Origin: a plasmid | Reading direction: 5' to 3' (one strand) | Length of the DNA: 64,000 nucleotides | Sequence record: NZ_CP104760.1 | Translations under genes and position numbers: made by a program | The notes under the pieces: generated by a model | What the model was told of the DNA's origin: nothing | The model's database searches: none | The model's input: the letters and a program-made list of their open reading frames with translations, nothing else | Shown: in pieces, positions 27-64,000 of the stretch | Position numbering within the stretch: the first letter of the stretch is position 1 | Layout: every line of letters starts with the position of its first letter

Positions 27-626
27 TCATTGGCTGTCCTTGCCTCCAAATGTTTCAATTGTCAGGAAATTAACAATATCGTCACCGGTGTTATCAGAGA
101 CCAGAAGGTCACGCCAGGCCTCAATATGTGGCTCTACCCAGGAGTGCGCCTGGCACATTGAACTCAGGGACGCGAGCAGCGGGTCGCTGATTTCATTTGC
201 GCCTGTAATGGGTGTCAAAGACGCCAAAAAACTTCTGTCCAGAAAGGAGTCTAAGCTCTCTCCCGTTCTGAGCACCACCTTCCGGCAGAAGCGGTCATCC
301 GTTTCGAGGCGGGCGGCATCCTCTGACTCAATGCCGTCAATTAGCATAAACATATAAAGGTCCGCCGTCTGGGGTTCTGCAAGGATGTCACGGACGTCTG
401 CGGCCCACCGGAATGCACTCTGAACAGTACTCAGCGAATTGCTAAATGCCGTGATCAACACAGTGCGCCATCCAGCCGTTTCCCGATTAATACGTTTGAG
501 CTGAATTGCAGCCATGTCGATATCAACCGATGGCAAAATCATTTTTTCCAAATCTGGCAAAAGAACGTCATAACGACCTTCAGCACGCCGGGTTATTGAG
601 GTTATGAGTTCATGAGTTGTTGGCAT
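27..626 (-). CDS. Hypothetical protein (about 199 aa), second gene of a two-gene operon. The likely start is the ATG at 626, preceded by an AAGGAG Shine-Dalgarno sequence and one nucleotide after the upstream stop, so translationally coupled. The ORF track's longer form starts at 665.
   Basis: Long ORF on the minus strand. A perfect SD (revcomp of 633-638) sits 7 nt upstream of the ATG. No recognisable catalytic motifs. Confidence 0.5.
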   Translation of the reverse strand: MPTTHELITSITRRAEGRYDVLLPDLEKMILPSVDIDMAAIQLKRINRETAGWRTVLITAFSNSLSTVQSAFRWAADVRDILAEPQTADLYMFMLIDGIESEDAARLETDDRFCRKVVLRTGESLDSFLDRSFLASLTPITGANEISDPLLASLSSMCQAHSWVEPHIEAWRDLLVSDNTGDDIVNFLTIETFGGKDSQ

Positions 627-627
627 A

Positions 628-2535: not shown

Positions 2536-2754
2536 TAAGATTTTCCTTATTGCATTCTAATTCCTTATTAAAATAAGTCATGCTAACTGATTTTTTGCTC
2601 ATTTCACAGTGAGACTAAGTACAGCAATCACAAATGCGTTGGCGGTGGATAACGCTCCTCATCGGGGAGAAAAAGCGCAAATATCTCTCATGGAACAGTC
2701 TAAGGATGTGTGAATATGTTTTAAGAATCTAAACACCCCCCCCAAGGAGCCGAT
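2536..2754. promoter_or_regulatory. Divergent promoter region between the 635-aa gene (minus) and the nuclease gene (plus). Contains a C8 homopolymer at 2736-2743 immediately 5' of the AAGGAG SD of the nuclease gene.
   Basis: AT-rich 219-bp gap between two divergent start codons. The poly-C run is read directly from the sequence. Confidence 0.4.
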
Positions 2755-3621
2755 ATGACTCGCCCTTCCATGAAAGCCTTAGTAGATATGCTCAGTAAGT
2801 CTCCCAGCTCACCACCTCCCGACAAATGGCAGGATCTGGAATCCCATGTTCAGGGCGTCTATCAGAAACTACTTGATATCCAGGGTAATAAAACCATGGT
2901 CGCCCGTGACGTACAGATTTCTGGGAGAGAGGGCAGTAGCTATCAGATAGATGTTTACTATGAATTTGAAATGGCAGGTATCCGCCACCGTGTTGCGGTG
3001 GAATGCAAGAACCGCTCCCGGCCATTGGAGAGGGATAGCGTGTTGGCCTTTCATGCCAAAATCCATGAGTGCAGTCTGAGCCACGGGGTCATCGTCTCCT
3101 CAGGCGGGTTTCAGAAAGGGGCACGCGAATTTGCTGAAAAAAATAACGTTACGCTTATGGATTACTCAGAGCTGCCTTCGATAGGCAATCTTCTTTCACG
3201 AAGACTGGCAAACGTGGTTATCCCCGACGAGGATACGATAGGACAGCCTTTTTGGACCCTTTTTAATATTGAGGAATACTCCCCTTACGGACAGATCCAT
3301 CATAAGGAAGAAATCATGTCGGCTTTTCTTTTTCTGTCCCGCACTCATGCCCTGCGATTTCTGAAAGAGCAGAATCTGGACAAAAGGTGGCAGGTCAGGG
3401 GCATGGCTCAGCGGCATCTCACGTGCTATATCCTGACCTGTGATGCGTTTAATGCAAGATACTTCATTGCCCGGCCCGGGTATGCAGCTGGTGTACCGGA
3501 AAACTGTTTCTTGTTTGATGAAATAAGGAGAAAGGATCTGATCAGTGATTTCTATGAGGGCATTGATCTACCCAAGGAAGCAAACACTGCTCCAAGATAT
3601 CGTTCAATTTTTCGGAAATAA
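2755..3621 (+). CDS. Mrr-cat-type PD-(D/E)xK restriction-endonuclease-like protein with a C-terminal extension of about 150 aa of unknown function.
   Basis: Motifs QIDVYYE...VAVECKN (D-E-x-K core) followed by IVSSGGFQKGAREFAEKNNVTLMDY, typical of the Mrr N-terminal catalytic domain (PF04471-like). Good SD AAGGAG. Confidence 0.65.
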   Translation: MTRPSMKALVDMLSKSPSSPPPDKWQDLESHVQGVYQKLLDIQGNKTMVARDVQISGREGSSYQIDVYYEFEMAGIRHRVAVECKNRSRPLERDSVLAFHAKIHECSLSHGVIVSSGGFQKGAREFAEKNNVTLMDYSELPSIGNLLSRRLANVVIPDEDTIGQPFWTLFNIEEYSPYGQIHHKEEIMSAFLFLSRTHALRFLKEQNLDKRWQVRGMAQRHLTCYILTCDAFNARYFIARPGYAAGVPENCFLFDEIRRKDLISDFYEGIDLPKEANTAPRYRSIFRK

Positions 3622-27455: not shown

Positions 27456-27666
27456 CAACATCTCTTTCTTCTCCATTAACAATCAGGCGGAGTGCCCGAA
27501 AGGTTTAATCAGAGGTTCGGTGGCGGTCGCGGAAAAGTTTCGCTGCTTTAAAATATTTTCGCGCTGAGGTGAGTGCCGGGCTGGTTAGCCTGCAGCTTTG
27601 CTGATGAGAGCGGGGCGTTATGGTACTATTCGCCGCCTGGACTTAAGACAGAAAAGGCGCATCAGG

Positions 27667-28617
27667 ATGCACAAGAAAAATACGCCTACCCCGCACGATG
27701 CGGTATTCAAAACCTTTCTCTCGCACCCCGAGACGGCGCGTGACTTTATGTCGCTGCATCTGCCGCCCGCGCTGCTGGCGATTTGCGATTTGACTACGCT
27801 GAAGCTGGAATCCGGCAGTTTCGTAGAGGATGACCTGCGCCCCTACTACAGCGATGTGCTTTACTCGCTGAAGACCCGCGGCGGCGAGGGGTATGTGCAC
27901 GTTCTGATTGAGCACCAGAGCACGCCGGATAAGCATATGGCGTTTCGGCTGATGCGCTATGCGGTGGCGGCGATGCAGCGTCATCTCGACGCCGGACATA
28001 AAACGCTGCCGCTGGTGATCCCGGTGCTCTTTTACCAGGGTAAGCGCAGCCCCTATCCTTACTCAATGAGCTGGCTTGATGCCTTTAGCGAGCGAGAACA
28101 GGCCGCGGCGCTCTACAGCGGACATTTCCCGCTGGTGGATGTAACCGTCATCCCGGATGAAGAGATTATGCAACACCGCAGCATGGCGGCGCTGACCCTG
28201 TTGCAAAAGCATATCCGCCAGCGCGATCTGAAAGGCCTGCTCGACCAGCTGGTGTCGTTGATGCTGACGGAATTTATGACCGGACAGCAGGTGATGGCGC
28301 TGGTAAACTATATGCTTCAGGCCGGCGAAACGTCGGACGCGAAAGCGATGATTCGTGAACTGGCACAGCGCGTGCCGCAGCATGAGGATGAACTGATGAC
28401 CCTTGCACAACAGCTTGAACAGATAGGATTGAAAAAAGGTCTGGAGCAAGGACTGGAACAGGGGCTGGAACAAGGCCTGGCACAGGGGCGCCAGCTTGGC
28501 GAACGAGAGGCCAGCCTGAATATCGCCCGGAACTTACTGAAAAGCGGTATGGACGTTCTCTCAGTCATGAAAGTAACGGGCCTGTCGGAAGAGGATCTCC
28601 AGCAAATCCACCACTAA
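27667..28617 (+). CDS. Rpn-family (YhgA-like, PDDEXK_7) recombination-promoting nuclease/putative transposase with a C-terminal GLEQ x 4 repeat.
   Basis: N-terminal HDAVFKTFLSHPETARDF, then VLIEHQSTPD, both typical of the Rpn/YhgA family. Confidence 0.75.
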   Translation: MHKKNTPTPHDAVFKTFLSHPETARDFMSLHLPPALLAICDLTTLKLESGSFVEDDLRPYYSDVLYSLKTRGGEGYVHVLIEHQSTPDKHMAFRLMRYAVAAMQRHLDAGHKTLPLVIPVLFYQGKRSPYPYSMSWLDAFSEREQAAALYSGHFPLVDVTVIPDEEIMQHRSMAALTLLQKHIRQRDLKGLLDQLVSLMLTEFMTGQQVMALVNYMLQAGETSDAKAMIRELAQRVPQHEDELMTLAQQLEQIGLKKGLEQGLEQGLEQGLAQGRQLGEREASLNIARNLLKSGMDVLSVMKVTGLSEEDLQQIHH

Positions 28618-31392: not shown

Positions 31393-33864
31393 ATGAAACA
31401 GAGGAATGTCATGGATCGCGTTGTAATAGCCCACACGCCGCTTGGTAGCGAACTCCTGTTTAAAAAGATGACGGGTCGGGAGCAATTCTCAGACTGTTAT
31501 CAGTTTGACGTCGATATGCTGAGCACCAGCAACGAAATAAACCTGCAGGATCTGCTGGGCGAGCAGATAACGCTTGAGCTGCGCCCTAATCCGGAAACAC
31601 AGCGTTTCCTCAGCGGCATGATTACCCGCATGGCGTTTGTCGGACATGAAAAGCACCGCGAAGAGTATTATATCTACCGCGCAACGATGCGCCCCCACTT
31701 GTGGAACCTGACCCAGACGCAGGGTTTTCGCATCTGGCAGCAAAAGACCGCCAGAGAGATCCTGACCGACGTTTTCCAGGATTATGCCATTCCCATTGAT
31801 GACCAGCTGGAGGGAAACTTCCGCATCTGGGAATACTGCGTGCAGTATCAGGAAAGCATGTATGACTTCGTAAAGCGTCTGATGGAGCACGAAGGCATCT
31901 ACTTCTACTTTCGTCATGCGATGGGCCAGGAGACGCTGGTGCTCTGCAACAGCAGGAAATCTCACCAGCCGTTCGGATGCTATGAGACCATCGAGTTTCA
32001 TCAAACCGGCGCGGGTGGTTACGTAAATCAGGAGGCGATCAACAGCTGGCAGGCGTCAGCGTCGGTGTCGGCCAGCCTCTACAGCCATGATGATTATAAC
32101 TATCTGCAATCGAACGCCGACCTCTCCGCCACGATGCAGATCGCCGACGCCCGCTCGCCGGCGAATACCAAAATCACCGAGTGGCCGGGACGCTATCCCC
32201 ATCAGTCAGAGGGAAACGACTATTCACAGATCCGCCAGCAGGAATATGGCGCGCGACAGCAGCAAATTGAAGGCGCGGGCGATGCGTTCGGCCTGGCGCC
32301 AGGCTACACCTTTACGCTCTGTATGGCGCCGCGCGCCGCAGATGAAGGAAAAACCTTTCTGATTACCCGGGTCGATTACCACCTGGAAGAGAACAGCTAC
32401 GCCAGTAACGATCAAGACCACAATATCCATCGCTTCGACTTCTGCGTTATTCCAGCGACGGTGGTCTGGCGTCCGGCGCGCGTCACGCCCTGGCCGCGCA
32501 CCACCGGCCCGCAAACGGCGGTGGTCATCAAAGCCAGCGACGCCAGCAAAGGCGACGGCGACCATATCTCCACCGATCAGTATGGTCGCGTGCGGGTTAA
32601 ATTCCGCTGGTTCAGAGCGGAAGATGAAACCCGGCTTCACTCCTGCTGGCTGCGCGTCTCAAGCGGCTGGGCCGGGAGCCAGTATGGCACGTATCAGATC
32701 CCGCGCGTCGGCGAAGAGGTGGTGGTCGATTTTATTAACGGCGACCCCCACACGCCGGTGGTGACTGGGCGAGTCTATAACGATTTGCAGACCCTGCCGA
32801 TTTCTGAACACCTGGTGACGGAAGCCAGCACCAGCGATATTGCCAGCGGTGACAGCGTAACGGCGGAGAGCGCCGCCGAGTGGAATTACGCTAAAAGTGG
32901 CATCTGGACGCGTACGCTCGGCAGCCAGGATGTTAACGACGGCAATTTCCTCACCTTTGACGACACCGAAGGCGAACAGTCGGTCGATCTGCACGCCGCG
33001 AAGAAGCTGAATATCTCCGCCAAGGACGCGGTCAAAATCTACTCCGCCAGGGCGGGCGACGACGCGATAAAAGTCTGGTCGCCCGGCCAGGTTTACATTC
33101 AGAGCGAAGATACCTTAAACACCAGCGCGCCGACGCAGAAACACAGCATTCGCGGCAGCTACTACACCATCAGCGGCGCCAACTTCACCACTAACGGCAT
33201 CGCCTTAACCATTAATGGCGTCAACGGCACCATCAATGCCGTCAGCAGCCTGCAGGCGACGACGACGGAATTCACTGCCAAAGGCTTATCCATGGAAGTC
33301 ACCGGCGTGAAGCACGCCAAAACCTATTCTGAAATAAAAAAGAACGTCAATGAGATCAAAGAGGTCAACCGGCAACTGGTCTTCGCCTCTTTGATCTCGA
33401 TTATGAATGGCGGCGGCGGCGCGTTGCCGAATGAGAATGAGCGGACGGTGACCAGCCAGCTGGACAAGCTGAAAGCGAAAGTGAAATGGAAAGGGAAAAG
33501 CAACGAAAGCGCCGCCGGTTCGCGACCGCCTTCGCAGGCGAGTAACGCCTCGCAGGGGAGTAACGCTTCGCAGGCGAGCAATGCTTCGCAGGCAAGTAAC
33601 GCCTCACAGGCAAGCAACGCTTCGCAGGCAAGTAACGCCTCCCAGGCGAGCAATGCTTCGCAGGCAAGCAATGCCTCGCAGGCAAGTAATGCTTCCCAGG
33701 CGAGTAACGCTTCTCAGGCGAGCAATGCCTCGCAGGCAAGTAACGCCTCACAGGCGAGCAATGCTTCGCAGGCAAGCAATGCCTCGCAGGCAAGCAACGC
33801 TTCGCAGGAGAGCTTCCAGACGGCGCGCACCAGTCAATCGACACCCGGTGGAGAAGGCGCTTAG
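31393..33864 (+). CDS. vgrG: T6SS spike protein VgrG with a C-terminal (SNASQA)n repeat tail and no recognisable toxin domain.
   Basis: gp27/gp5-like N-terminal region (RATMRPHLWNLTQTQGFRIWQ...). The C-terminal 15 hexapeptide repeats end in ...SQSTPGGEGA. Confidence 0.9.
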   Translation: MKQRNVMDRVVIAHTPLGSELLFKKMTGREQFSDCYQFDVDMLSTSNEINLQDLLGEQITLELRPNPETQRFLSGMITRMAFVGHEKHREEYYIYRATMRPHLWNLTQTQGFRIWQQKTAREILTDVFQDYAIPIDDQLEGNFRIWEYCVQYQESMYDFVKRLMEHEGIYFYFRHAMGQETLVLCNSRKSHQPFGCYETIEFHQTGAGGYVNQEAINSWQASASVSASLYSHDDYNYLQSNADLSATMQIADARSPANTKITEWPGRYPHQSEGNDYSQIRQQEYGARQQQIEGAGDAFGLAPGYTFTLCMAPRAADEGKTFLITRVDYHLEENSYASNDQDHNIHRFDFCVIPATVVWRPARVTPWPRTTGPQTAVVIKASDASKGDGDHISTDQYGRVRVKFRWFRAEDETRLHSCWLRVSSGWAGSQYGTYQIPRVGEEVVVDFINGDPHTPVVTGRVYNDLQTLPISEHLVTEASTSDIASGDSVTAESAAEWNYAKSGIWTRTLGSQDVNDGNFLTFDDTEGEQSVDLHAAKKLNISAKDAVKIYSARAGDDAIKVWSPGQVYIQSEDTLNTSAPTQKHSIRGSYYTISGANFTTNGIALTINGVNGTINAVSSLQATTTEFTAKGLSMEVTGVKHAKTYSEIKKNVNEIKEVNRQLVFASLISIMNGGGGALPNENERTVTSQLDKLKAKVKWKGKSNESAAGSRPPSQASNASQGSNASQASNASQASNASQASNASQASNASQASNASQASNASQASNASQASNASQASNASQASNASQASNASQASNASQASNASQESFQTARTSQSTPGGEGA
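33538..33807 (+). repeat. 15 tandem copies of an 18-bp unit (consensus gcRagYaaYgcYtcNcag) encoding (ASNASQ)15 inside the 3' end of vgrG. Copies differ almost only at synonymous positions.
   Basis: Counted directly from the sequence. It generates artefactual antisense ORFs (LACEALLACE...). Confidence 0.9.
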
Positions 33865-33872
33865 CCGCTGTT

Positions 33873-36353
33873 ATGAAAATCATTAAACCACGCCACCTGG
33901 GCTTGTTACCGCGCCCCTTCCGTTGGCAGCGCCAGCACTATCTCGGCGTCGCCGTTATGGCGATGATAAATATGGATGCGCTGCCGCGCCTGCTGACCGA
34001 GCAGGCGCTATGGAATCTGCTGCCAGAGGCGCTGCAGTCGCCCGATGGCGTGCTCGATCACGGCCTGCCTAAACCGCACCCGGAGTTTCTCGCCAGCGGC
34101 TTTGCCTTTCCGCCCGGCGGCGCGGCATCGCACTGTATCGCCCGCATCCAGGTAGCCGATCGGGAAAAAACGCTGCACGTTTACGGCGATCGCCAGCGGC
34201 GGGAGGATGGCCTCAGCGCACCGCAGCCTTTTACGCAGATGCCGCTCGACTGGCAACATGCGTTGGGCGACGCAGGCGACAGCGAAAATCCGCTGGGCAA
34301 GGCGATACCCAACGTCGAGGCGGCCGCGCCGCTGCTGATCCAGCCCGGCGCGGGCGCGCTTCCTGCCAGCTTTAACGCGGTGCCGTTAAGCGCGCCGCGT
34401 CGCCTGCGCCACGTTGGCAGCGCCTTTGACGAGGCCTGGCTGGCGCATGACTATCCTGGCTTCGCCCGCGATGCCGACCGACGCCTGTTTAACCAGGGCG
34501 ATGCGGATCAGCGCTGGGACGATCGCGACGCCCTGCCCGCTGGCGCCGCCTGGCGCATTGAAAACATGCATCCAGATAAATCGCTGCTTGAGGGATGCCT
34601 GCCGCCGTGGCAGGCACGCTGTTTCGTGGTGCGTCAGCATACCCACGGCGAGATGTTTGAAGCGATCCCGCTGCGCGCCACGACGCTGCACTTTTTCCCT
34701 CATCTGGAGCGCATTGTGATGATCTGGCATGGCGAGCTGGCGATCCGTGAAGATGACGCTGCAGACGTGCTCACCACGGTCGCAGCGCTCGAGTCGATCC
34801 ACCAGCCGCGCACGCCCGAAGCCTATGAAGAGATCACGCGGCAACGCAGCGACCCCGAACGCTCGGTGCTGCTTGCGTTACGCGACGGCGAGTTGCTGCC
34901 CCCAGGCAGCGCCATTACGGATGACGAGCCTGAACCGCCTCCCGGCCCGACAGATCGCAACCTTGCGCGCTGGGAAACGGCGCAGCGCCAGCAGCTGCGG
35001 CATGCGCACAGCGACAGCGGGATGGATATAGATGCGCTGGCGCCCACCCGACCGCGCGCTCCGACGGTGCCGCTGGAGGATCTGCATGATTATATCGACG
35101 CGCAGGATCGCGCCGCGCAGCAGCAGCTGGCGCAGATGATAACGCGCTATCAGCAGGAAGCGGCGCTGGCTCCGCCCGCCGCCAGACCGGCCGCCGCGAT
35201 AGAGACCTATCGCAGCCAGCGCGCCGCGTTTGACGAGAACGCGCAGCAGCAGCCGATGGATGACCGTCAGCGTACGTTCAGCTCTCAGGCGCTGCGTGAC
35301 AGCTACCGCTTTAATGCTCATCAGCTGAGCGCGCCCGAGCGCCTGACGCCCGCGCAGTCGGCGCAGTTGCGTCAGGCGGTGCTGACGCGCGATGGCGACT
35401 GCCGCGAGATGGATCTCACCGGCGCGGATCTGTCAGGGCTTGACCTGCGCGACACCGACTTCAGCGGCGCGCTGCTGGAGAATGTCGATTTCAGCCACTG
35501 CCAGCTCGACGGCAGCCTGTTCAGCAATGCCGTGCTGACGCGCGCAGAACTGCATCGCTGCTCAGCCCGCGCCTGCGCCTTCGATAATGCCAGCCTGGCT
35601 CTGGCCCAGTGCTGTTACGCCGACTTTAGCGATTCAGTCTTCAGCGAGACGGAGTGCCGGGATCTGATGCTGGAACAGTGCGTTTTCGATCGCGCCACCC
35701 TCAGTGACGTAATGCTGACACAGGCGAGCCTGGCGCACTGCCGCTTTCATCATGCGCAGATCGTCAATGCCCATTTCAGCGAGCTGACGCTGCAGGCGCT
35801 CGACTTCAGTCACGCCACGCTGCGCAAAGTCTATTTCGTCGAGTGCCATCTGCTGGCGCTCAGTTTCGAACAGGCGCGCCTGACGGCGGTGGGCTTCGTC
35901 GACTGTCAGGCGCCAGAAATCTGTTTTCATCAGGCGCAGCTGCATACTTCGCTGTTTGTCACCGATACGGCCCTGATCCGCGCCGACTTCAGCGGCGCCA
36001 CGCTGACGCAGTGCAATCTGCGGGAGACGCGGCTGGCGCAGGCGAACTTTTCTCACGCCATGCTGATCAACAGCGACCTCAGCGGCGCGGACTGTACGCA
36101 GGCGGATATGCGGCGGATGCAGGCCAGGGAGTGCCAGTTTACCCGTGCGGATTTGACGCGGGCGACGCTGGCGGAGAGCGACCTGATCGGCGCCTCCTTC
36201 TCAAAATCTCAGCTGCAGGGATGTGATTTCAGCGGCTGCAACCTGTTCCGCGCCGACCTCTCGCTTAGCGTGCGCGATGCGACGACGCGCTTCGAAGAGG
36301 CCTGGCTTAACGGCATGAAAACCGCGCCGCAGCGCGACGAGGAGCATTCGTGA
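33873..36353 (+). CDS. DUF2169-type T6SS adaptor domain fused to a long C-terminal pentapeptide-repeat domain (826 aa).
   Basis: Immediately downstream of vgrG, as is typical for DUF2169. The C-terminal half is A(D/N)LxG/F pentapeptide repeats (ADLSGLDLRDTDFSGALLENVDFSHCQL...). Confidence 0.7.
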   Translation: MKIIKPRHLGLLPRPFRWQRQHYLGVAVMAMINMDALPRLLTEQALWNLLPEALQSPDGVLDHGLPKPHPEFLASGFAFPPGGAASHCIARIQVADREKTLHVYGDRQRREDGLSAPQPFTQMPLDWQHALGDAGDSENPLGKAIPNVEAAAPLLIQPGAGALPASFNAVPLSAPRRLRHVGSAFDEAWLAHDYPGFARDADRRLFNQGDADQRWDDRDALPAGAAWRIENMHPDKSLLEGCLPPWQARCFVVRQHTHGEMFEAIPLRATTLHFFPHLERIVMIWHGELAIREDDAADVLTTVAALESIHQPRTPEAYEEITRQRSDPERSVLLALRDGELLPPGSAITDDEPEPPPGPTDRNLARWETAQRQQLRHAHSDSGMDIDALAPTRPRAPTVPLEDLHDYIDAQDRAAQQQLAQMITRYQQEAALAPPAARPAAAIETYRSQRAAFDENAQQQPMDDRQRTFSSQALRDSYRFNAHQLSAPERLTPAQSAQLRQAVLTRDGDCREMDLTGADLSGLDLRDTDFSGALLENVDFSHCQLDGSLFSNAVLTRAELHRCSARACAFDNASLALAQCCYADFSDSVFSETECRDLMLEQCVFDRATLSDVMLTQASLAHCRFHHAQIVNAHFSELTLQALDFSHATLRKVYFVECHLLALSFEQARLTAVGFVDCQAPEICFHQAQLHTSLFVTDTALIRADFSGATLTQCNLRETRLAQANFSHAMLINSDLSGADCTQADMRRMQARECQFTRADLTRATLAESDLIGASFSKSQLQGCDFSGCNLFRADLSLSVRDATTRFEEAWLNGMKTAPQRDEEHS

Positions 36354-37408
36354 ACGGGATGACGGCTGAGGCGGTCGAGCGCGCCATCCAGCACGGCGAG
36401 ATGATCTATCAGGTCGGGCTGCAGGGCCTGGACTTCAGCGGACGCGATCTCTCCGGCGGCTCTTTTATCGAGGTCGACTTAACCGGCGCACGCCTGACAG
36501 ACTGCAATCTGCATGAGACGCGCTTCAGCGACTGCTGCCTGCGCGGCAGCGATTTTTCAGGCAACAGGCTAGAGGAGACGCTGTTCAACCAGTGCGTTAT
36601 GACCGGCGCGCGCTTCAGCGATTGCGGCCTCTACCAGTGTCTGTTCAGCCAGTGTCAGCTTGAAGAAAGTCAGTTCGACGCCAGCGCGCAGATCGGCACG
36701 CAGTTCCTGGGCGGCTCGCTTAGCGACAGCGATTTTCAGCACGCCGCGCTGCAAGGATGCGGCTTCAGCGATCTGGGACATTTAACGCTCCAGCTTGCCG
36801 GGTGCTGGTGCGAGCAGGGTTCCTTTATGAACGCCGACCTGCGTCAGGCGGACTTTAGCGCGGCGCGCTTCTCGCTCACGACCTTTTTCGCCTGCGACCT
36901 GCGGCTGCAAACGCTGGACGGCGTGGCGTTTAACCAGTGCCAGTTTACGCAAAGCCAGCTGGACGGCGCCAGCTTCCACCAGGCGATCCTGAGCCAGTGC
37001 GGTCTCAGCGGTCTGTCGCTACGCCAGGCCAGGCTGACGCAGGTGCAGGCGCAGCAAACGCTGTTTAACGCCGCCGATATGACCGGCTGTGACTGCCGCG
37101 ACGCGCAGTTTGCTCAGGCCAACTTTGCCGACGCGATTCTGACCGGCTGCGATTTCAGCCGCAGCGATCTACAGCGCGCCGTGCTGGCGCGCAGCCGTGC
37201 CGTTCAGACGCGCTTCGACGGCTGCGATATGACCTGGGCGGACTGCACCAGGGCGCAAATGGATGAGGCGCAGTTTAACGACGCGCAGTTCGGGCACACC
37301 CGCTTCCACCGCGCCAGCACGCACCAGAGCGAATTCACCTCGCGCAGCGGTATTATTGAACGGGATGAAGCGCTGTTTGCAGCAGAGGAGTGGAGCCGCC
37401 AGCGTTAA
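36350..37408 (+). CDS. Pentapeptide-repeat protein (352 aa).
   Basis: DFSGRDLSGGSFIEVDLTGARLTDCNLHETRFSDCCLRGSDFSG and similar repeats throughout. Start overlaps the upstream stop. Confidence 0.8.
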   Translation: MNGMTAEAVERAIQHGEMIYQVGLQGLDFSGRDLSGGSFIEVDLTGARLTDCNLHETRFSDCCLRGSDFSGNRLEETLFNQCVMTGARFSDCGLYQCLFSQCQLEESQFDASAQIGTQFLGGSLSDSDFQHAALQGCGFSDLGHLTLQLAGCWCEQGSFMNADLRQADFSAARFSLTTFFACDLRLQTLDGVAFNQCQFTQSQLDGASFHQAILSQCGLSGLSLRQARLTQVQAQQTLFNAADMTGCDCRDAQFAQANFADAILTGCDFSRSDLQRAVLARSRAVQTRFDGCDMTWADCTRAQMDEAQFNDAQFGHTRFHRASTHQSEFTSRSGIIERDEALFAAEEWSRQR

Positions 37409-38241
37409 ATTATTTCGCCGCGTGCGACGGCGATTATAAAAAATTTATTATGCCATATTTATTATTGACGATTGACGCTGCGGCCTTAAAGAGGCCGCTT
37501 TTGCTTTTGTGTGAATTAAATATTTATGACAGAAGGCTGAGAAGATCCGTTAGTCAGTGACGGAGATAATTAACCTGTGAAATGATATTCACTGTTTTCC
37601 TTTGCTGGCCTTATATTATTCGGACTAAATGGCTGTGTATTGCTGAAAATTAACGCCTGTTTCAAACGGGTGTCATAAAGGCTGCGCTAACCAGATATTT
37701 ACTATGCTGTTTCAGTATCGGATATCTTTCAATATATCATTGATTTTTATAGCTTTGATTTTATTTAATTCAGATTTAAATTTAATTATGACATTTACAT
37801 TAAGTTTATATGAATATTTTCCCGGGCTATTTATTAAGAGTATTCCCATCTTCACAGGTGCCAGCGAATAATGTAAATATGTTCCCCGGTTAGTGTATTT
37901 ATTGAGTAAATTATTTCGCATCATGAACGCTGCGTATGCGCCACGCCTCTATTTATTCTGGCGGAGCTGTTTGCGTCTTTTTACTGGCGGCAAAAAATCA
38001 AAATATATTACCTGAGGGTTATTGTTTCTTCTATGCGCCTCTTTTTAACGTGCAGTTTATTCGCCCCGACAGGCTTTGCAGCAGAAAGAATCGCCTTTAT
38101 TTGCCGTCAGTCTCTGAAAAAAGCGGCTAATCACGCTGTTATCGATGCGCGTGGAAATAACCGCGTCGGCGCAGGAAAAACCGTTACGCCGCGCCTCCCC
38201 TGTTTCGTGCCATTCCCTTTCGTCGATTGTGAGAGTTCGCT
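37409..38241. promoter_or_regulatory. AT-rich non-coding spacer of about 830 bp inside the vgrG-adaptor module. Candidate silenced or regulated promoter region for the DUF3540/DUF4150/tssJ-M genes.
   Basis: Strikingly AT-rich compared with flanking coding DNA (above 60% GC by eye). No credible ORF. Confidence 0.45.
37480..37511 (+). terminator. Rho-independent terminator downstream of the second pentapeptide-repeat gene.
   Basis: Stem gcggcc/ggccgc, loop ttaaaga, then ttttgcttttgtg. Confidence 0.6.
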
Positions 38242-38850
38242 ATGAGCAAAAAAGAGAACACCCTCTCCATGCCGCTGCGGTTGCCTGCGCAGGCGGAGGG
38301 CGTAGTGGTCGCCCCGCTGTCCGAAAACAGCGTCGAGGTGGAGCTGCAGGGACGTCGCTGGCGCACGCAGCGCGCCGCCAGCTGCCTGCTGACGCCGGAG
38401 CCGGGAGACCGGGTGCTGCTGGCCAACCTTAACCATCAACTCTGGCTGCTGGCGGTGCTGGAGCGGGCGCAGCCCGAACAGACGGCGCAGCTCGGCTGCG
38501 GCAGCGATCTGCATCTCGCCTGCGGCGGCGCGCTCACGCTTAGCAGCCAGCAGTTCAGCCTGAAAGCCGCGCAGGGCGAGTGCGATATCGACAGCCTGCG
38601 CTATCGCGGCCAGTCGGTTTCCGCCTGGATCAGCGTCGGCCGCTTCTTCGGCAAACAGTGTGAAAGCGTCTGGGAGAGCCTCAGCCAGTTTAGCCAGCGG
38701 CTGCTGCGCAAAACCGCACAGTGCGAACAGGTTCGTGCAGGCCAGCTTGACGTCAAAACCGAAGAGTTCACCCGACTCCATTCGCGCAACACCCTGATCA
38801 GCAGCACGTCGCTGACCAAGGTCGACGCCAAACAGATTCACATGGGCTAA
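38242..38850 (+). CDS. DUF3540-like protein of the vgrG/DUF2169/PAAR-like module.
   Basis: About 200 aa, positioned between the pentapeptide-repeat genes and the DUF4150 gene, as in described VgrG1b-type modules. Assigned by context and size. Confidence 0.5.
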   Translation: MSKKENTLSMPLRLPAQAEGVVVAPLSENSVEVELQGRRWRTQRAASCLLTPEPGDRVLLANLNHQLWLLAVLERAQPEQTAQLGCGSDLHLACGGALTLSSQQFSLKAAQGECDIDSLRYRGQSVSAWISVGRFFGKQCESVWESLSQFSQRLLRKTAQCEQVRAGQLDVKTEEFTRLHSRNTLISSTSLTKVDAKQIHMG

Positions 38851-38863
38851 GGGAGAAGCGGAT

Positions 38864-39244
38864 ATGTTTGCCAATTGCCAACGCGGCGGCTGCGACCAGG
38901 CGGTCAGCGACGTCTGCAAAGCGCCTGCGCCGACGACCTTCGTCAATATCGCCAGCGGCAGCCTGGCGGTGCCTACGGCGCCGACCATCCTCTTCGCCGG
39001 CATGCCGGCCCATAACATGACCACGCTGATCCCCGTCAGTCAGGGAGATGAAGCGGGCGTGCTCGGCGGGGTGATCTCGAACGTGATCCTTGGCCCTTCG
39101 CGCCACCTGACCGGCTGCTCCACCTTACTGCTGCAGGGATCGCCCGCGACACGCATGGGCAGCACTACCCTGCAGAACCTGAACAACGCGCCAGGCGTCC
39201 GTCTGACGCCCAGCCAGACCACTATCGAACTGCTGGCGCGATAA
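38864..39244 (+). CDS. DUF4150 PAAR-like spike-sharpening protein with no C-terminal toxin domain (126 aa).
   Basis: Size and position match DUF4150 PAAR-like proteins. Gly/Ala/Thr-rich beta-rich sequence. Ends shortly after the domain. Confidence 0.6.
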   Translation: MFANCQRGGCDQAVSDVCKAPAPTTFVNIASGSLAVPTAPTILFAGMPAHNMTTLIPVSQGDEAGVLGGVISNVILGPSRHLTGCSTLLLQGSPATRMGSTTLQNLNNAPGVRLTPSQTTIELLAR

Positions 39245-39250
39245 CACTCT

Positions 39251-39754
39251 ATGGAAGCTCGGTTACCCCTTATGAAAAAGATGATATCTGGCGTGGTGAT
39301 TGCGTTAGCGCTCAGCGGCTGTAACGCGCCGCCGGTGAAATCTCAGGAGAAGCTGGAAACCAGCGTAGTGGACGGAACGACCCTGGTGCATCGCCACGAG
39401 ATCGGCGCGCCGAAAACCTTCACGCCGGTTTATCAGGCCTATCGCGCGCTCTATGCGGCGTCGGTGATGAGCACGCCGGGCTTCCAGGGAAAACGGGTCG
39501 GGACGCTTAAAAACGGCGAGCTTTACCAGGTACTGGGTCGGGTAGAAAACAACTGGCTGGCGATCTCCGACAGCCCGGAGCTGCAGCTGACCGGCTACGT
39601 CGAGTTTAAGGCGGGCGTGCCCTCAGCGCGCTATGACGCCACCGTAACCGGCGCGCCACCCGTATCGCGGCGCCCCGCCCGGCAGTGCATCGGCGTCGGC
39701 AACGGCGACAGCGCCTGCCGTAAAGGCCGTTCCGCCACCTGGATCATTCAATAG
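39251..39754 (+). CDS. Lipoprotein with a bacterial SH3-like domain. Alternative start at MKKMISG.
   Basis: Lipobox LALSGC. The NGELYQVLGRVENNWLAIS...GYVEFK region resembles SH3b. Confidence 0.5.
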   Translation: MEARLPLMKKMISGVVIALALSGCNAPPVKSQEKLETSVVDGTTLVHRHEIGAPKTFTPVYQAYRALYAASVMSTPGFQGKRVGTLKNGELYQVLGRVENNWLAISDSPELQLTGYVEFKAGVPSARYDATVTGAPPVSRRPARQCIGVGNGDSACRKGRSATWIIQ

Positions 39755-52612: not shown

Positions 52613-53382
52613 ATATTACCTTTGCTTCCACCAGCCAGCAGGGCCAGCGCGCCATGAATCAGGATCAGCTCGCCGACGCGCTCGGCGCGCGCGCTGCCTG
52701 CTTTGTGATCTGCGACGGCATCGCCGGCAAGCCGGGCGGAGATGTCGCCGCCCGGCTGGCGTGCGAGACCATCGTCGGGCAGTTCAACACCGAAACGCAC
52801 CTCGACGCGCAGCATATCCGCCACTATATCGCTGCCGCCAATCGCGCCATTCTGCAAACCCAGGCGCGCGACGCGCAGCTGAAAAATATGGGCACCACGC
52901 TGGTGAGCCTGTTTATCGATCGCGACTATCAGCTCGCCTACTGGGCGCACGCGGGGGACAGCCGCCTCTATCTGTTCCGCCGCGGCTATCTGCTGCAGCA
53001 GACGCGCGATCACAGCCTGGCGCAGCAGATGCGCGATGCCGGGCATGATGGCGGCAGCGTAAACCAGAACCTGCTCTACTTCGCGCTGGGCATGCGCGAG
53101 GAGCGCGAGGCCAGCTACAGCGATGTGTTGCCGCTGGAAGACGGCGACGCCTTTTTGCTCTGCACCGACGGTTTCTGGCATGCGCTGCAGGTTGAGGATC
53201 TCGAACAGAGCCTGCGGATGGTAAGTTCGCCGCAGGAGTGGCTGGCGCTGCTACAGCGCATGCAGCCCGACGACAACCCGGATAATTTCAGCGCGCTGGC
53301 GGTCTGGATCGGCGAGCCGCAGGACGCCACGCTGCTCAGCTCGTTCAGCGATGCCCAGCGCATCTTGCTCAACTGCCGCTAA
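52609..53382 (+). CDS. pppA: PP2C-family Ser/Thr phosphatase PppA (TagG).
   Basis: FASTSQQGQRAMNQDQ...FVICDGIAG (PP2C motifs) and TDGFW. Confidence 0.8.
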   Translation: MNITFASTSQQGQRAMNQDQLADALGARAACFVICDGIAGKPGGDVAARLACETIVGQFNTETHLDAQHIRHYIAAANRAILQTQARDAQLKNMGTTLVSLFIDRDYQLAYWAHAGDSRLYLFRRGYLLQQTRDHSLAQQMRDAGHDGGSVNQNLLYFALGMREEREASYSDVLPLEDGDAFLLCTDGFWHALQVEDLEQSLRMVSSPQEWLALLQRMQPDDNPDNFSALAVWIGEPQDATLLSSFSDAQRILLNCR

Positions 53383-53398
53383 CCGCCGGGAACCCACG

Positions 53399-54313
53399 AT
53401 GAAAAGCTGGATTATTCCGCTCTGTCTGGCGCTGCTGCCCGCTGCCGTTCAGGCCAAAAGCGTGCGTATCGCCTGGTCGCCCGCCGCCCGGCTCAGCGCC
53501 TGGCTGGACAATGTGCCCGGCGCGCAGCCGCGCCAGTGGTGCGGTGCCAGCGCGGCGCTGCATATCGAACCGGCGGGCGCGTTCAGCCAGGAGGCGTTTA
53601 ACGATTTCCTGCCGCAGGTGGGCCGTATCCTGGCGAAGCAGTGCGGCGAACTGAAAACCCTGCGCTGGACGGTGATCGACAAACAGGGCGACGCCCGGCT
53701 TAAAGGCACCGCCAGCGCCGACCAGAAGTGGCGCGTCATTCTGCCGCCGCCGGAGATCGTCGCCGACGCCACGCCGTGGCAGCGCTTCGCCCTCTCGGCA
53801 CGCTGCAGCTTCCGCACCTACTGGCCCGCCGACGGCCAGGCGGCGCAGCCGGTTTCGCCGGAAGGTTCCGAACCGCGCTGCGACGATGCGGGCTGGATCC
53901 AGGGGCCGGGCCGCATTGGTTCTTCCGCCGTCACCTTTGTCAGCGGCTACCCGCTGCTTAACGCGCCTGCCGGCGCGACCCAGCAGAGCACGCAGGTGGT
54001 CAGCGCCAATAACCAGCGCCTGATCCTGGCCAGCGGCAGCGACGCCAGCAGCTGGCTGCTGCTGCCGTGGGATGCGGCGCATCTCGCCTGGCGCTTTGAC
54101 GGCAGCGTGCTGATTAAGGCGACGCCGGGCGAGGCGGAGGACGCGCGCGCCCGCACAACGTTGATTGATGCCGCGCGCCAGCGCTGGGCGCTGGGCGATA
54201 AAGAGGCCGCGTGGCAGCTGATCGCCGCTCTTCATCCGCACGCCCTCAATCCCGCGCCGGATCCGCTGGCGCAGCTAAACAGTGACGCGGCGCCCGCCGC
54301 CCGAGGTAAATGA
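53399..54313 (+). CDS. Secreted/periplasmic protein of unknown function encoded between pppA and the tagJ-like gene.
   Basis: Signal peptide MKSWIIPLCLALLPAAVQA. No recognisable motif. Confidence 0.45.
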   Translation: MKSWIIPLCLALLPAAVQAKSVRIAWSPAARLSAWLDNVPGAQPRQWCGASAALHIEPAGAFSQEAFNDFLPQVGRILAKQCGELKTLRWTVIDKQGDARLKGTASADQKWRVILPPPEIVADATPWQRFALSARCSFRTYWPADGQAAQPVSPEGSEPRCDDAGWIQGPGRIGSSAVTFVSGYPLLNAPAGATQQSTQVVSANNQRLILASGSDASSWLLLPWDAAHLAWRFDGSVLIKATPGEAEDARARTTLIDAARQRWALGDKEAAWQLIAALHPHALNPAPDPLAQLNSDAAPAARGK

Positions 54314-61218: not shown

Positions 61219-62714
61219 GCGACAACCGTTCACAGGCGTTGCCGCAGGGCTATCGCTTTAATGAGTTTGAAATTGAGCAGGTGATTGGCGAAGGCGGCTT
61301 CGGCATCGTCTACAGCGCCTGGGATCATCAGCTGGAGCGCCGGGTGGCGATCAAGGAGTATATGCCCGCTTCAATGGCGGTGCGCGGGGAGAACCTGCAT
61401 CTGCAGCTGCGCAGCGAGCGCTTCGTCGCTGTATTTCAGGCCGGTATGAACAGCTTTATTCAGGAGGCGCGCATCCTGGCGCGTTTCTCCCATCCCGGCC
61501 TGCTCCATGTGCTGCGTTTCTGGCAGGATAACGATACTGCCTATATGGTCACGGAGTTTTACAGCGGCGATACCCTGAAAAACCGCTATCAGAAAGAGCC
61601 GCAGCTGGTGAACGAAACATGGATCCGCTCGCTGCTGCCGCCGCTGCTCAGCGCCTTGCGCACGCTGCACGACAACGGTTATCTGCATCGCGATATCGCG
61701 CTGGATAATATTCAGATTCAGGAGAACATGCTGCCGGTGCTGCTCGACTTTGGCTCGGCATGCAAAGAGATCGGCCATCTCACCGATAAAACCGAGATTA
61801 TGCTCAAGCCCGGCTATGCGCCGATTGAACAGTACAGCGAGGGACGCGATGGCGACCAGGGGCCCTGGACCGATATCTACGCCCTCGGCGCGGTGCTGCA
61901 TATGCTGGTCGCTGGCGAACCGCCGCCGGTCAGCGTCGTGCGGCTGATCAGCAATAACTATCAGCCGCTGGCGCAGCGCCAGCCGCCGGGCTTCTCTCTG
62001 TCGCTGTTGCAGCTGATCGATGAGATGCTGCAGCTGCAGCCCGAAGATCGTCCGCAGAGTATTCAGGCGCTGGCAGCGCGGCTGATAAGCCTCGACCGCG
62101 ACCTTGCCGGGCGCGAAACGGCATCTGCCCCTGAGGCGATCCCCACCCCGACGGCGTCGTTCCCGGCGACGTTGCCGGTGGCGGCGTCCCCTGACACCCT
62201 GCTGCCGGTGCCTGCGGTGCCTGATGCCGCGCAGTCGGTGAGCGTGCAGCCAGGGAGAAAAAGCGCCGCGCGCCGTCCGCTGATACTGGCGGCCGCGGCG
62301 GCCGCGGGCCTCGCCGCTGTGGTGGTCTGGCTGGTCGCCCGGCCCGCGCCGTCCGAACCTGCGGTGGCCGCTGTGGCGACTCCCGCTTCGCCCGCTGCCA
62401 CGCCGCCCAGACCTGCGCCCGCGTCATCGCTGGCCGCTGCCTCTGCGCCATCACCGGCGCCGAAGCCGCTACCGGCACCGAAGCCGCCTGTCGCCCAGGC
62501 GCGCGTCTATCTGAATCTTCAGAAGGACGACGCTCTCTTTCTTGACGGCGAGGCGCAGCCCGCTGCCACCGCTGACGAGCCGCGACTGCTACGGCTGGCG
62601 CCGGGCCATTATCAGCTGGCGGTGAAGCGAGGCGAGCAAAACTGGACGCAACAGCTGGAGATTACGCAGGCTGGCACCTGGCTGGTTAAGGTGCCTGAGC
62701 GCTTTACGCCTTAA
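61215..62714 (+). CDS. ppkA: Ser/Thr protein kinase PpkA (short form: kinase, TM, Pro-rich periplasmic tail).
   Basis: Hanks kinase motifs (VIGEGGFGIVY, VAIKEY, HRDIALDN, DFGSA, GYAPIEQ). One TM. ATG at 61215 overlaps the clpV stop. Confidence 0.8.
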   Translation: MSDNRSQALPQGYRFNEFEIEQVIGEGGFGIVYSAWDHQLERRVAIKEYMPASMAVRGENLHLQLRSERFVAVFQAGMNSFIQEARILARFSHPGLLHVLRFWQDNDTAYMVTEFYSGDTLKNRYQKEPQLVNETWIRSLLPPLLSALRTLHDNGYLHRDIALDNIQIQENMLPVLLDFGSACKEIGHLTDKTEIMLKPGYAPIEQYSEGRDGDQGPWTDIYALGAVLHMLVAGEPPPVSVVRLISNNYQPLAQRQPPGFSLSLLQLIDEMLQLQPEDRPQSIQALAARLISLDRDLAGRETASAPEAIPTPTASFPATLPVAASPDTLLPVPAVPDAAQSVSVQPGRKSAARRPLILAAAAAAGLAAVVVWLVARPAPSEPAVAAVATPASPAATPPRPAPASSLAAASAPSPAPKPLPAPKPPVAQARVYLNLQKDDALFLDGEAQPAATADEPRLLRLAPGHYQLAVKRGEQNWTQQLEITQAGTWLVKVPERFTP

Positions 62715-63097
62715 CGACTGACGCTGCCGTTTTCCCGGAAAACCACATCGTCGCCGTGCGGTGTGGTTTTGGTAACCTGCAGGAACCAGGCGCTGTTATC
62801 GCTGCTGCCCTCTTCCGCCGGAGCCAGCACGTAGGTGTAGGGCGCCTGGCGGAAGATATAGCCGCGAAAGTCGCGCGACGGCCCGATATTCAACGTCGAG
62901 CCTTTCAGGGTCAGCTGGTGGTGATTATTTTTATTCACCGCATGGTAGGTGACCTGGTCGCACTCAATATCCTCGGCGGTGCATTTCCCCAGGGAGAGAT
63001 AGACGTTATAGCTTTTGCTCTGGAAAAAGGGCTTATTATCCTGCGCCAGAGAGTGAAATGTGCAGGCCAGCAGACATAGCGCCATCAGCTTTTTCAT
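62711..63097 (-). CDS. Periplasmic small protein. Candidate immunity protein for the upstream lysozyme-like effector.
   Basis: Sec signal MKKLMALCLLACTFHSLA. Start ATGA overlaps the effector stop. Confidence 0.45.
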   Translation of the reverse strand: MKKLMALCLLACTFHSLAQDNKPFFQSKSYNVYLSLGKCTAEDIECDQVTYHAVNKNNHHQLTLKGSTLNIGPSRDFRGYIFRQAPYTYVLAPAEEGSSDNSAWFLQVTKTTPHGDDVVFRENGSVSR

Positions 63098-63894
63098 ATT
63101 TTTAGATAAACTCCTTCATGGTATACCTTCAGTTCGCTTTTTCGCCGGTTAATTAGCCCGCGCATCGGTTTGCCGTGCGAAAGCGTATAACGCATCCAGG
63201 CGTTATCAAGGTTTTCGCCTGACTCACCGTTTATTATTTTCAAAACGGTGGAGTAGTAAAATCCAGCATGATGCCGATCGTCTCTGCTGCCGATATTGAA
63301 CGCGAAGATTAATAACGCGTCAAATTCGTTCTGGGTTAAATCCACCTTCACATAGTCGCGCACCGTCGCAATAAAGGGTTTCAGATCGCGCGCGAATAAT
63401 GCCTCGGCGTCGCTCTCTGAAATTCCCTCTTTATATTGCGCAAAATCGCTCTTACGGCTTATCCAGTGACCGTAACCGATGGTAGCGCCGCTGGTCCAGC
63501 TGTCGATAGTCATGGAGGTCTGGTCATCGTAGGGCAAGGTGTGCAGCTGCTCATACTGCATCAGCAGGCGCAGGCAGCGGTAGCTGGGCAGTATCTGGCG
63601 AGGCTGGCGCCGCGTGCCCTGCCGGTTCGTGCTGGTCGCGCCCTGCGGCCCGCGCGGCGGCGAGGCGTTTTGCGTCAGGTGCTGCAACGTTTTCCTGCCT
63701 GGCGTCACTATCCCGTCGGGCAGATGATAAAGACGTTTCTGGTAATCGATAATGGCTTTAAGGGTATTACTGCCGCAGATTCCGTCGACCCTGAGCGCAG
63801 GGAAGCCGTTTTCACGCAGTAATTTTTGCACGACGACGACATCCTGAGGCCGGTTGACCGCACCCTTACCTACCGGGGAAGTTATGGTTTCCAT
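63094..63894 (-). CDS. Peptidoglycan-binding domain (PG_binding_1) fused to a GH24 phage-type lysozyme domain. Candidate T6SS muramidase effector.
   Basis: VVVVQKLLRENGF...DGICGSNTLKAIIDYQK (PG-binding). YEQL...PYDD...TIGYGH and NEFDALLIFAFNIG match GH24 lysozyme motifs. ATG at 63894. Confidence 0.6.
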   Translation of the reverse strand: METITSPVGKGAVNRPQDVVVVQKLLRENGFPALRVDGICGSNTLKAIIDYQKRLYHLPDGIVTPGRKTLQHLTQNASPPRGPQGATSTNRQGTRRQPRQILPSYRCLRLLMQYEQLHTLPYDDQTSMTIDSWTSGATIGYGHWISRKSDFAQYKEGISESDAEALFARDLKPFIATVRDYVKVDLTQNEFDALLIFAFNIGSRDDRHHAGFYYSTVLKIINGESGENLDNAWMRYTLSHGKPMRGLINRRKSELKVYHEGVYLKI

Positions 63895-64000
63895 CTGAGA
63901 TCCGTTAATATCAGAAAGGTTTGCCAGACTCGTGCGGCGCAAACTGATCCGCAACGCCTGACTTTATCCGCAACGTATGACAGCCAGATGAAATTTAACT

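Follow-up and report, generated by a model that had tools for sequence, protein, structure and literature searches.

Two neighbouring genes downstream of vgrG in a 64,000-nucleotide stretch of plasmid DNA (sequence record NZ_CP104760.1; this whole stretch is called the window below) very probably encode the Class III Tvp proteins TvpAB and TvpB, cytoplasmic chaperones by which the VgrG-PAAR spike tip of a type VI secretion system (T6SS) would be assembled. By its DNA identity to strain IIIF1SW-P2 (98.7-99.0% over 19 kb), the window is assigned to Pantoea piersonii. An earlier note, made from the letters alone, had described the pair as a DUF2169 adaptor fused to pentapeptide repeats followed by a second pentapeptide-repeat protein, and had called the presence of such proteins beside vgrG unexplained. 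The finding is real, but that verdict is out of date: the association is accounted for by the work on the Serratia Tvp system (PMC13373197), and the locus is an uncharacterised member of a described system. Among the three roles that had been offered for the repeat proteins, that of chaperone agrees with experiments on the orthologues of Serratia marcescens Db10, protection of DNA or topoisomerases gains no support from the scores against the Qnr and MfpA families, and delivery as cargo is contested.

Domain architecture of the fused and the stand-alone repeat proteins

The first gene, tvpAB (tagAB; 33873-36353, plus strand, ATG start), encodes 826 amino acids and was identified from Pfam matches, an AlphaFold2 model and orthology; the second, tvpB (tagB; 36350-37408, plus strand, GTG start), encodes 352 amino acids and was identified from a Pentapeptide_4 match (E 3.3e-40), an AlphaFold2 model and the alignment of its orthologues. 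Both open reading frames (ORFs) lie exactly where the earlier note had placed them, and the upstream vgrG (31393-33864, plus strand), the DUF2169 domain and the pentapeptide content that it had reported were recovered with E-values far beyond chance: the 823-residue VgrG matches Phage_GPD (E 5.9e-81), Phage_base_V (E 9.1e-17) and TIGR03361 (E 2e-129), and TvpAB matches DUF2169 (PF09937) at residues 21-286 (E 4.4e-54) and Pentapeptide/Pentapeptide_4 (E 1e-39).

The TvpAB model, built with 45 homologues (mean predicted local distance difference test score, pLDDT, 89.7), has three parts: the DUF2169 domain to residue ~310, alpha-helices at 315-505 and a beta-helix at ~510-815. The DUF2169 (TvpA) domain (residues 1-310; 33873-34802, plus strand), delimited by the PF09937 match and Foldseek, is the most conserved part of the protein (mean 49% identity), and the top Foldseek match of the whole model is the crystal structure of a Vibrio xiamenensis DUF2169 protein (8VTH_A; E 4e-14, template modelling (TM) score 0.73 on the target). 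The helical linker (residues 311-508; 34803-35396, plus strand), with long helices assigned by DSSP at 359-378, 401-431, 442-459, 464-484 and 493-505, shows the lowest conservation of the three (mean identity 28%; length 183-257 amino acids among the aligned homologues). The pentapeptide-repeat beta-helix follows (residues 509-815; 35397-36317, plus strand; pLDDT 92-98), with ~15 coils and a register of ~58 pentads spanning ~511 to 803; this part matched only generic pentapeptide proteins structurally. The repeat domain had been put at 500 amino acids and called unusually long. The register and the model reduce it to ~300 amino acids, the remainder being the ~200-residue helical linker, and its length is standard, at 300-309 amino acids in every one of the 45 aligned homologues, down to 27% identity. 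All 101 full-length TvpAB homologues retrieved have the same fused architecture (754-963 amino acids).

The repeat register of TvpB runs from residue ~21 to 325 (~61 pentads), and its model (pLDDT 88), computed on a generic pentapeptide alignment rather than an orthologue-specific one, shows a long beta-helix between an N-terminal cap helix and a C-terminal helix; in Foldseek it matched only generic pentapeptide proteins, with poor global superposition. Neither Pfam nor NCBIfam detected a catalytic domain or anything else beyond pentapeptide repeats in TvpB. The homologue search for this protein found only unrelated generic pentapeptide proteins (21-30% identity) and did not return the species' own orthologue, and the TvpB orthologues were gathered by tblastn of the fetched loci. 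Their alignment is full-length and near-gapless, at 351-361 amino acids from Enterobacterales to Myxococcota. The 4-nt overlap between tvpAB and tvpB has the same geometry in all orthologous loci, a recurrence that supports the GTG start of tvpB.

Some database entries for these proteins are irregular. Two TvpAB homologues of 846-854 amino acids are mislabelled 'QnrS1 [Klebsiella pneumoniae]' (VTT28144.1) and 'Type III effector pipB2 [Citrobacter freundii]' (STB68455.1), because the pentapeptide repeat is common to all of them. In some P. piersonii assemblies tvpAB appears as two fragments on one contig (657 and 167 amino acids) or as shorter calls (664 and 682 amino acids), which suggests frameshifts, or breaks of assembly or annotation, in those strains.

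Gene order and orthology with the Serratia Tvp system

Two further genes past tvpB belong to the same module and had been overlooked in the earlier note: tvpC (tagC; 38242-38850, plus strand), encoding a 202-residue DUF3540 protein (PF12059, E 1.3e-38), and paar (tagD/Paar1-type; 38864-39244, plus strand), encoding a 126-residue cone of the DUF4150/PIPY type without an effector domain (PF13665, E 6.5e-26, residues 12-111). The module thus reads vgrG-tvpAB-tvpB-spacer-tvpC-paar, followed by a TagV-like gene and tssJKLM, an order that matches the S. marcescens T6SS cluster. The T6SS core set downstream (39764-61218) is complete: tssJ, tssK, tssL, tssM, tagF, tssA, tssB, tssC, hcp, fha, pppA, tagJ, tssE, tssF, tssG and clpV.

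Shalom et al. (2007) are cited as having named genes of this kind tagAB, tagB, tagC and tagD in Burkholderia. DUF2169 proteins chaperone DUF4150 ('PIPY') cones, and 37% of DUF2169 genes fall into 'synteny type C' (Sachar et al., JBC 2025; PMC11883445). Monlezun, Earl and Coulthurst (EMBO J 2026; PMC13373197) defined the 'Class III Tvp system' in S. marcescens Db10 and renamed its proteins TvpAB (SMDB11_2247), TvpB (2248) and TvpC (2249), acting together with Paar1. According to that study, no gene of the set is dispensable for the VgrG1-Paar1 pathway or, in the absence of VgrG2, for Hcp secretion; a VgrG1 pull-down recovers TvpAB, TvpB and Paar1; a TvpC pull-down recovers the same three proteins without VgrG1; TvpC enters a pre-complex with them as a trimeric stand-in for VgrG; and neither TvpAB nor TvpB was ever detected as secreted in Serratia secretomes. 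In its AlphaFold model TvpAB wraps the TvpC-Paar1 tip, with the linker helices packed on the middle of the TvpC prism, and TvpB closes the assembly 'like a seat belt'. The same work proposed a very long VgrG beta-prism as a correlate of Class III, though not a strict one, and the terminal helix of VgrG1 as a cryptic membrane toxin.

A S. marcescens locus (L014), fetched via its DUF3540 protein, was used for direct comparison; it carries the Tvp cluster and is not confirmed as strain Db10. In it vgrG1 is followed by two small genes, tvpAB (848 amino acids), tvpB (355), tvpC (211), paar1 (130), a lipoprotein gene, tssJKLM, tagF, tssA and tssB. The two small genes aside, this order and that of the window are the same from vgrG through tssB, where the fetched locus ends. 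Identities between the two loci are 34% for VgrG, 38% for TvpAB and 37% for TvpB (both over the full length), 46% for TvpC, 52% for PAAR and 66% for TssK. The two systems also share the domain architectures, the 4-nt tvpAB/tvpB overlap and the position of the module as the first genes of the main T6SS cluster, before the lipoprotein gene and tssJKLM-tagF-tssA-tssB. The present analysis itself established the identity of the genes, their domain architecture and folds, the orthology and synteny with Serratia, the constraint on length and the purifying selection.

Likeness extends beyond Serratia. The T6SS-5 of Burkholderia (TagAB-5 (BPSS1504), TagB-5, TagC-5 and TagD-5) and B. glumae (bglu_2g07420/bglu_2g07410) carry the same four-gene set with the same domains, and in both of them genetics shows the two repeat-containing proteins to be necessary for T6SS function or virulence: sheath assembly in Burkholderia requires TagAB, TagB, TagC and TagD (PMC13584744), and B. 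glumae needs the separate repeat protein as well as the repeat domain (Kim et al. 2021, PMC8747328). The likeness drawn here is one of gene set and domains, and these systems differ from the window in having eukaryotic targets and a VgrG5 with a C-terminal effector domain. The single-domain DUF2169 chaperones (Agrobacterium tumefaciens Tap2/Atu3641 of Class I, Pseudomonas aeruginosa PA0097 and Vibrio parahaemolyticus VP1398 of Class II, and 8VTH) have the fold of the N-terminal 310 residues of TvpAB and, as in the window, a DUF4150/PIPY cone as partner; unlike the window, they have no pentapeptide extension, TvpB or DUF3540 protein, and their PAARs carry toxin domains. The range of the tvpAB-tvpB-paar core reaches from Enterobacterales as far as Polyangiaceae, and tblastn detected DUF3540 in three of the six myxobacterial loci. 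These six loci, from Polyangium and metagenome-assembled genomes of Polyangiaceae (L002-L007), carry a tvpAB-tvpB-(tvpC)-paar module at 25-43% identity; in one of them (L004) the module lies behind three tandem vgrG genes.

Selection on the module and the TvpC interface

The ratios of nonsynonymous to synonymous substitution rates (dN/dS) lie at 0.11-0.33 for tvpAB, tvpB, tvpC and paar, similar to vgrG (0.15-0.29 for tvpAB and 0.11-0.33 for tvpB taken separately). The constrained lengths of the TvpAB repeat domain, TvpB and TvpC, together with the strict synteny and the purifying selection, fit what a geometric, structural role would predict.

The TvpC residues that are essential in Serratia are kept or conservatively replaced (F138W, L152V, I159F, D204, I208 and V210M). 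Residue 206, which is acidic in Serratia with TvpB R135 as its predicted partner, is K or R in the clade formed by piersonii, rwandensis and Erwinia sp. S63, and position 135 of TvpB is G, S or Q in exactly that clade; both sides of the pair changed together, though this amounts to only one evolutionary event. The conserved interface residues and this paired change lend indirect support to a Serratia-like complex. Only the R135 pair is reported; R160, a second TvpB partner residue given in the Serratia paper, was unmappable, since the S. marcescens assembly used has C at that position.

Proposed assembly of the spike tip

Experiments on the orthologues established the complexes, the order of assembly, the need for firing and the non-secretion of the Tvp proteins; that P. 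piersonii works alike is our inference. A trimer of TvpC would first carry the small hydrophobic DUF4150 cone (38864-39244), the DUF2169 domain of TvpAB would cover the cone's hydrophobic surface, the helical linker of TvpAB and its ~15-coil beta-helix would wrap along the prism, and the ~15-coil beta-helix of TvpB would close the ring in the fashion of a seat belt. VgrG (31393-33864) would then displace TvpC, the baseplate would accept the capped spike, and the Tvp proteins would be shed before or at firing. On this proposal the pentapeptide beta-helices would be rigid protein scaffolds of matched length and would not mimic DNA.

Departures from the Serratia prototype

Several features of the locus weigh against a simple transfer of the Serratia model. 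Some of them concern VgrG, whose layout comprises a gp27/gp5 core, an oligonucleotide/oligosaccharide-binding (OB) fold to residue 463, a 183-residue prism region, a C-terminal helix and a low-complexity tail of ~130 amino acids. By alignment only, the distance from the end of the OB fold to the C-terminal helix is 183 amino acids, against 260-301 in P. stewartii, S. rubidaea and S. marcescens; the prism region is shorter by 80-120 amino acids, and by ~120 when set against Serratia. The conserved amphipathic or hydrophobic helix (~647-676, ending ...EIKKNVNEIKEVNRQLVFASLISIMNGGGG) is internal here, followed by GGGG and the ~130-residue repeat tail, whereas the Serratia-type VgrG1 ends at the helix. 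The tail is encoded by an 18-bp tandem repeat (33527-33808, plus strand; 15.6 copies by TRF) that specifies (ASNASQ)n. Its copy number differs between strains (VgrG has 823 amino acids in the window and 835, 12 more, in IIIF1SW-P2), and the tails of related lineages hold fewer copies (L012), an AGNATQ variant (L011), or else PTPRQSQ or P/S-rich sequence.

The window also differs from the Serratia prototype in having neither a homologue of Vai1 nor the second small gene between vgrG and tvpAB. The gap between these two genes (region 31393-33873) is 8 nt and holds no small gene for a Vai1-type immunity or membrane protein, and the Vai1-like and neighbouring small proteins of three loci (L009, L010 and L014), used as queries, found no homologue anywhere in the 64-kb window. 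Small genes lie between vgrG and tvpAB in S. marcescens (two) and P. stewartii (one), and eight small paralogous genes form an array around vgrG in S. rubidaea.

In the PAAR protein, alignment shows P-T-T-F in place of P(I/V)P(Y/F), the PIPY of Serratia, with a short deletion of 3-7 residues just upstream. The degenerate motif is common to the window, the 87%-identity lineage and Erwinia sp. S63 (PVTF); the PAARs of P. stewartii, S. rubidaea, S. marcescens and the myxobacterial loci keep PIPY intact. Relative to Serratia, the charge pair TvpC-206/TvpB-135 is likewise rewired. Finally, the part of TvpC as a mimic of VgrG was not reproduced from sequence: hhalign against VgrG profiles gave a probability of 0.4%, a Pfam scan of 38 TvpC homologues returned DUF3540 only, and a profile search of the PDB gave only faint matches (S17 OB, E 0.28; Afp8, E 2.4), none of them significant.

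The remaining departure is an AT-rich non-coding spacer of 833 bp (37409-38241), without a credible ORF, which splits the module by parting tvpB from tvpC; the distance is 30 nt in Serratia, and across P. rwandensis, Erwinia sp. S63, P. stewartii, S. rubidaea and S. marcescens the two genes overlap or stand no more than 40 nt apart. The spacer is confined to the piersonii-like clade (the window, IIIF1SW-P2, L012 and L015). Its GC content is 40% overall and 34% in the first 510 nt, against ~65% in the 2-kb stretch containing most of tvpAB. In the spacer Rfam gave nothing at gathering score, and blastn against the window and all fetched loci found it to be single-copy, not a repeat element. A terminator-like hairpin (GCGGCC...GGCCGC) with a T-run (37480-37508, plus strand) lies 72 nt past the tvpB stop; it is not kept in L012. 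Further on, a block of ~54 nt (37830-37883, plus strand) is identical in the lineage of 87% protein identity (L012) and nearly so in a lineage of 72% (L015), with flanks that are barely alignable. It contains a promoter-like TTCCCA-18 nt-AATAAT (37843-37872, by promoter scan) ~370 nt upstream of tvpC, and is probably an internal promoter, or an operator, serving tvpC-paar together with the T6SS core genes. A 13-nt direct repeat occurs in the same region, at 37406 and 37907.

Taken by alignment and gene content, these deviations run counter to the idea that the Class III belt copes with an over-long prism; the identity of the two repeat proteins is unaffected by them.

Alternative explanations

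The strongest challenge to the chaperone assignment comes from the same genus. Zhao et al. (2024; PMC10933656) studied P. ananatis DZ-12, which has the same order (DUF2169, pentapeptide protein, next gene, PAAR), and read TecG (DUF2169) as an adaptor, TseG (pentapeptide/YjbI) as an effector and TsiG, the product of the next gene, as its immunity protein. Applied to the window, TvpB would be a secreted T6SS effector, the DUF3540 protein its immunity protein and TvpAB the adaptor or, in a softer form, the cap proteins would leave with the spike. Two of their observations weigh against spike-tip chaperones: FLAG-tagged TseG was found in P. ananatis supernatants, and less of it in vgrG1 and hcp1 mutants, and TseG expression slowed the growth of Escherichia coli, a mild toxicity that TsiG relieved. 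At the P. stewartii locus (L009), in a species closely related to P. ananatis, the same four genes are present, with a TvpB 40% identical to that of the window; at ~40% identity to the P. stewartii/ananatis type, however, the window proteins form a different subclade. The other results of that study, binding of TseG to TecG and TsiG and loss of virulence and killing in the deletion mutant (PMC10933656), are exactly what a chaperone model predicts, and the TseG claim is better explained by loss of a spike chaperone. The toxicity amounted to a growth slow-down on over-expression only, no catalytic domain is detectable in TvpB, and the Serratia secretome studies never detected TvpAB or TvpB. Moreover, TvpB and TvpC keep a 1:1 pairing and fixed lengths across phyla at dN/dS 0.1-0.3, unlike patchy and polymorphic effector-immunity pairs. 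The cargo reading remains contested and the conflict between the Serratia and P. ananatis studies stands; we consider that reading unlikely for the window.

A role in DNA mimicry of the Qnr, MfpA or AlbG kind, in which both repeat proteins would shield gyrase or topoisomerase of the producing cell against a T6SS effector that targets DNA, is highly improbable. The two proteins resemble that group in their right-handed quadrilateral beta-helix and acidic composition (pI, the isoelectric point, 4.7-4.9 and net charge -19 for each repeat region), they match Qnr, MfpA and AlbG sequences and structures weakly, and some homologues carry the 'QnrS1' label in databases. Acidity was nevertheless rejected as evidence, being uninformative: it is an expected general property of pentapeptide-repeat proteins. 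The family scores reflect the shared repeat only (68.3 and 73.1 bits for NF033086 Qnr against a cut-off of 240, and 48 and 46.6 bits for NF000349 MfpA against 360), and superposition on QnrB1, MfpA and AlbG in Foldseek gave root-mean-square deviations of 6-17 A with TM scores on the query of at most 0.32. The beta-helix has ~15 coils and is ~1.5 times longer than that of Qnr or MfpA; in the solved structures of Qnr, MfpA and AlbG the chains have 180-220 amino acids. The proteins differ from that group in their T6SS spike partners, fusion and genomic context as well: one repeat domain is covalently fused to a PAAR chaperone domain, and the module has no nuclease or topoisomerase toxin, the PAAR being a bare 126-residue cone. 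A protective factor would be dispensable for Hcp secretion, yet the orthologues are required. It is also very unlikely that the module is a decaying remnant in this lineage, with tvpC-paar uncoupled by the spacer and its terminator, PIPY lost and tvpAB split in some strains. The 833-bp AT-rich spacer with its terminator-like hairpin, the degenerate motif and the 657- and 167-residue tvpAB fragments on the same contig in one P. piersonii assembly would suit decay. All five ORFs of the module are, however, intact both in the window and in IIIF1SW-P2, dN/dS stays at 0.11-0.33 across lineages that already have the spacer and PTTF, the spacer holds a strongly conserved promoter-like block, and the PTTF-type variant also occurs in Erwinia sp. 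S63, which has no spacer.

A possible rewired cap and its significance

With TvpAB and TvpB read as spike-tip chaperones, the departures described above could together amount to a variant cap. We put forward tentatively, and with more doubt than confidence, that the Class III Tvp cap is rewired in the piersonii-like clade: a prism ~100 amino acids shorter than in Serratia, an internal helix followed by a hypervariable disordered tail encoded by a variable-number tandem repeat, no Vai1, a cone without PIPY, a swapped TvpC/TvpB charge pair, and separate transcription of vgrG-tvpAB-tvpB and of tvpC-paar-core, the latter from the conserved promoter in the acquired spacer. If this were true, the full TvpAB/TvpB belt would not exist for coping with an over-long prism; an explanation by which it fills the baseplate cavity or protects a bare hydrophobic cone would be favoured, and the clade would offer a natural variant for asking whether the C-terminal helix of VgrG is a toxin.

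In any case, the shortened prism, the tail of VgrG, the lack of Vai1, the degenerate PIPY motif and the splitting of the operon bear on two questions from the Serratia paper, why Class III needs a long repeat belt and whether that helix is toxic. The locus adds a divergent Pantoea example to a system whose characterisation has so far been confined to Serratia and Burkholderia, and it highlights a conflict in the literature, where the same protein is a chaperone in Serratia (TvpB) and an effector in P. ananatis (TseG). The main practical use is to correct annotation: pentapeptide-repeat proteins beside vgrG would be better named TvpAB/TvpB spike-tip chaperones than Qnr-like resistance or DNA-mimic proteins.

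Neighbouring genes in the window

The gene between paar and tssJ (39251-39754, plus strand) encodes a TagV-like lipoprotein of 167 amino acids, which matches the NCBIfam TagV family (E 2.2e-42) below the family cut-off and also has LPAM_1 and SH3_3 matches. Within the core set, a 320-residue ORF without a Pfam or NCBIfam match lies between pppA and tagJ (53351-54313). No kinase domain was detected in the window; related T6SS clusters have the Ser/Thr kinase gene ppkA elsewhere (after clpV in P. stewartii).

Upstream of the module, a gene for a YhgA-like Transposase_31 protein (27598-28617, E 9e-85) lies ~2.8 kb before vgrG and is followed by a glycosyltransferase gene and a short-chain dehydrogenase gene, both of which also adjoin vgrG in the 72% lineage (L011). 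The start of the window (27-3621) holds a group of genes of the defence type, with ABC-3C components on the minus strand (MComp1, E 7e-11; CTD2, E 3e-83) and a gene for an Mrr-like restriction endonuclease (2755-3621). At the other end, directly after clpV and on the minus strand (61371-63954), a 286-residue protein with PG_binding_1 and Phage_lysozyme domains is encoded beside three small ORFs without a family match (128, 176 and 176 amino acids); these may be a peptidoglycan-hydrolase effector and its immunity genes.

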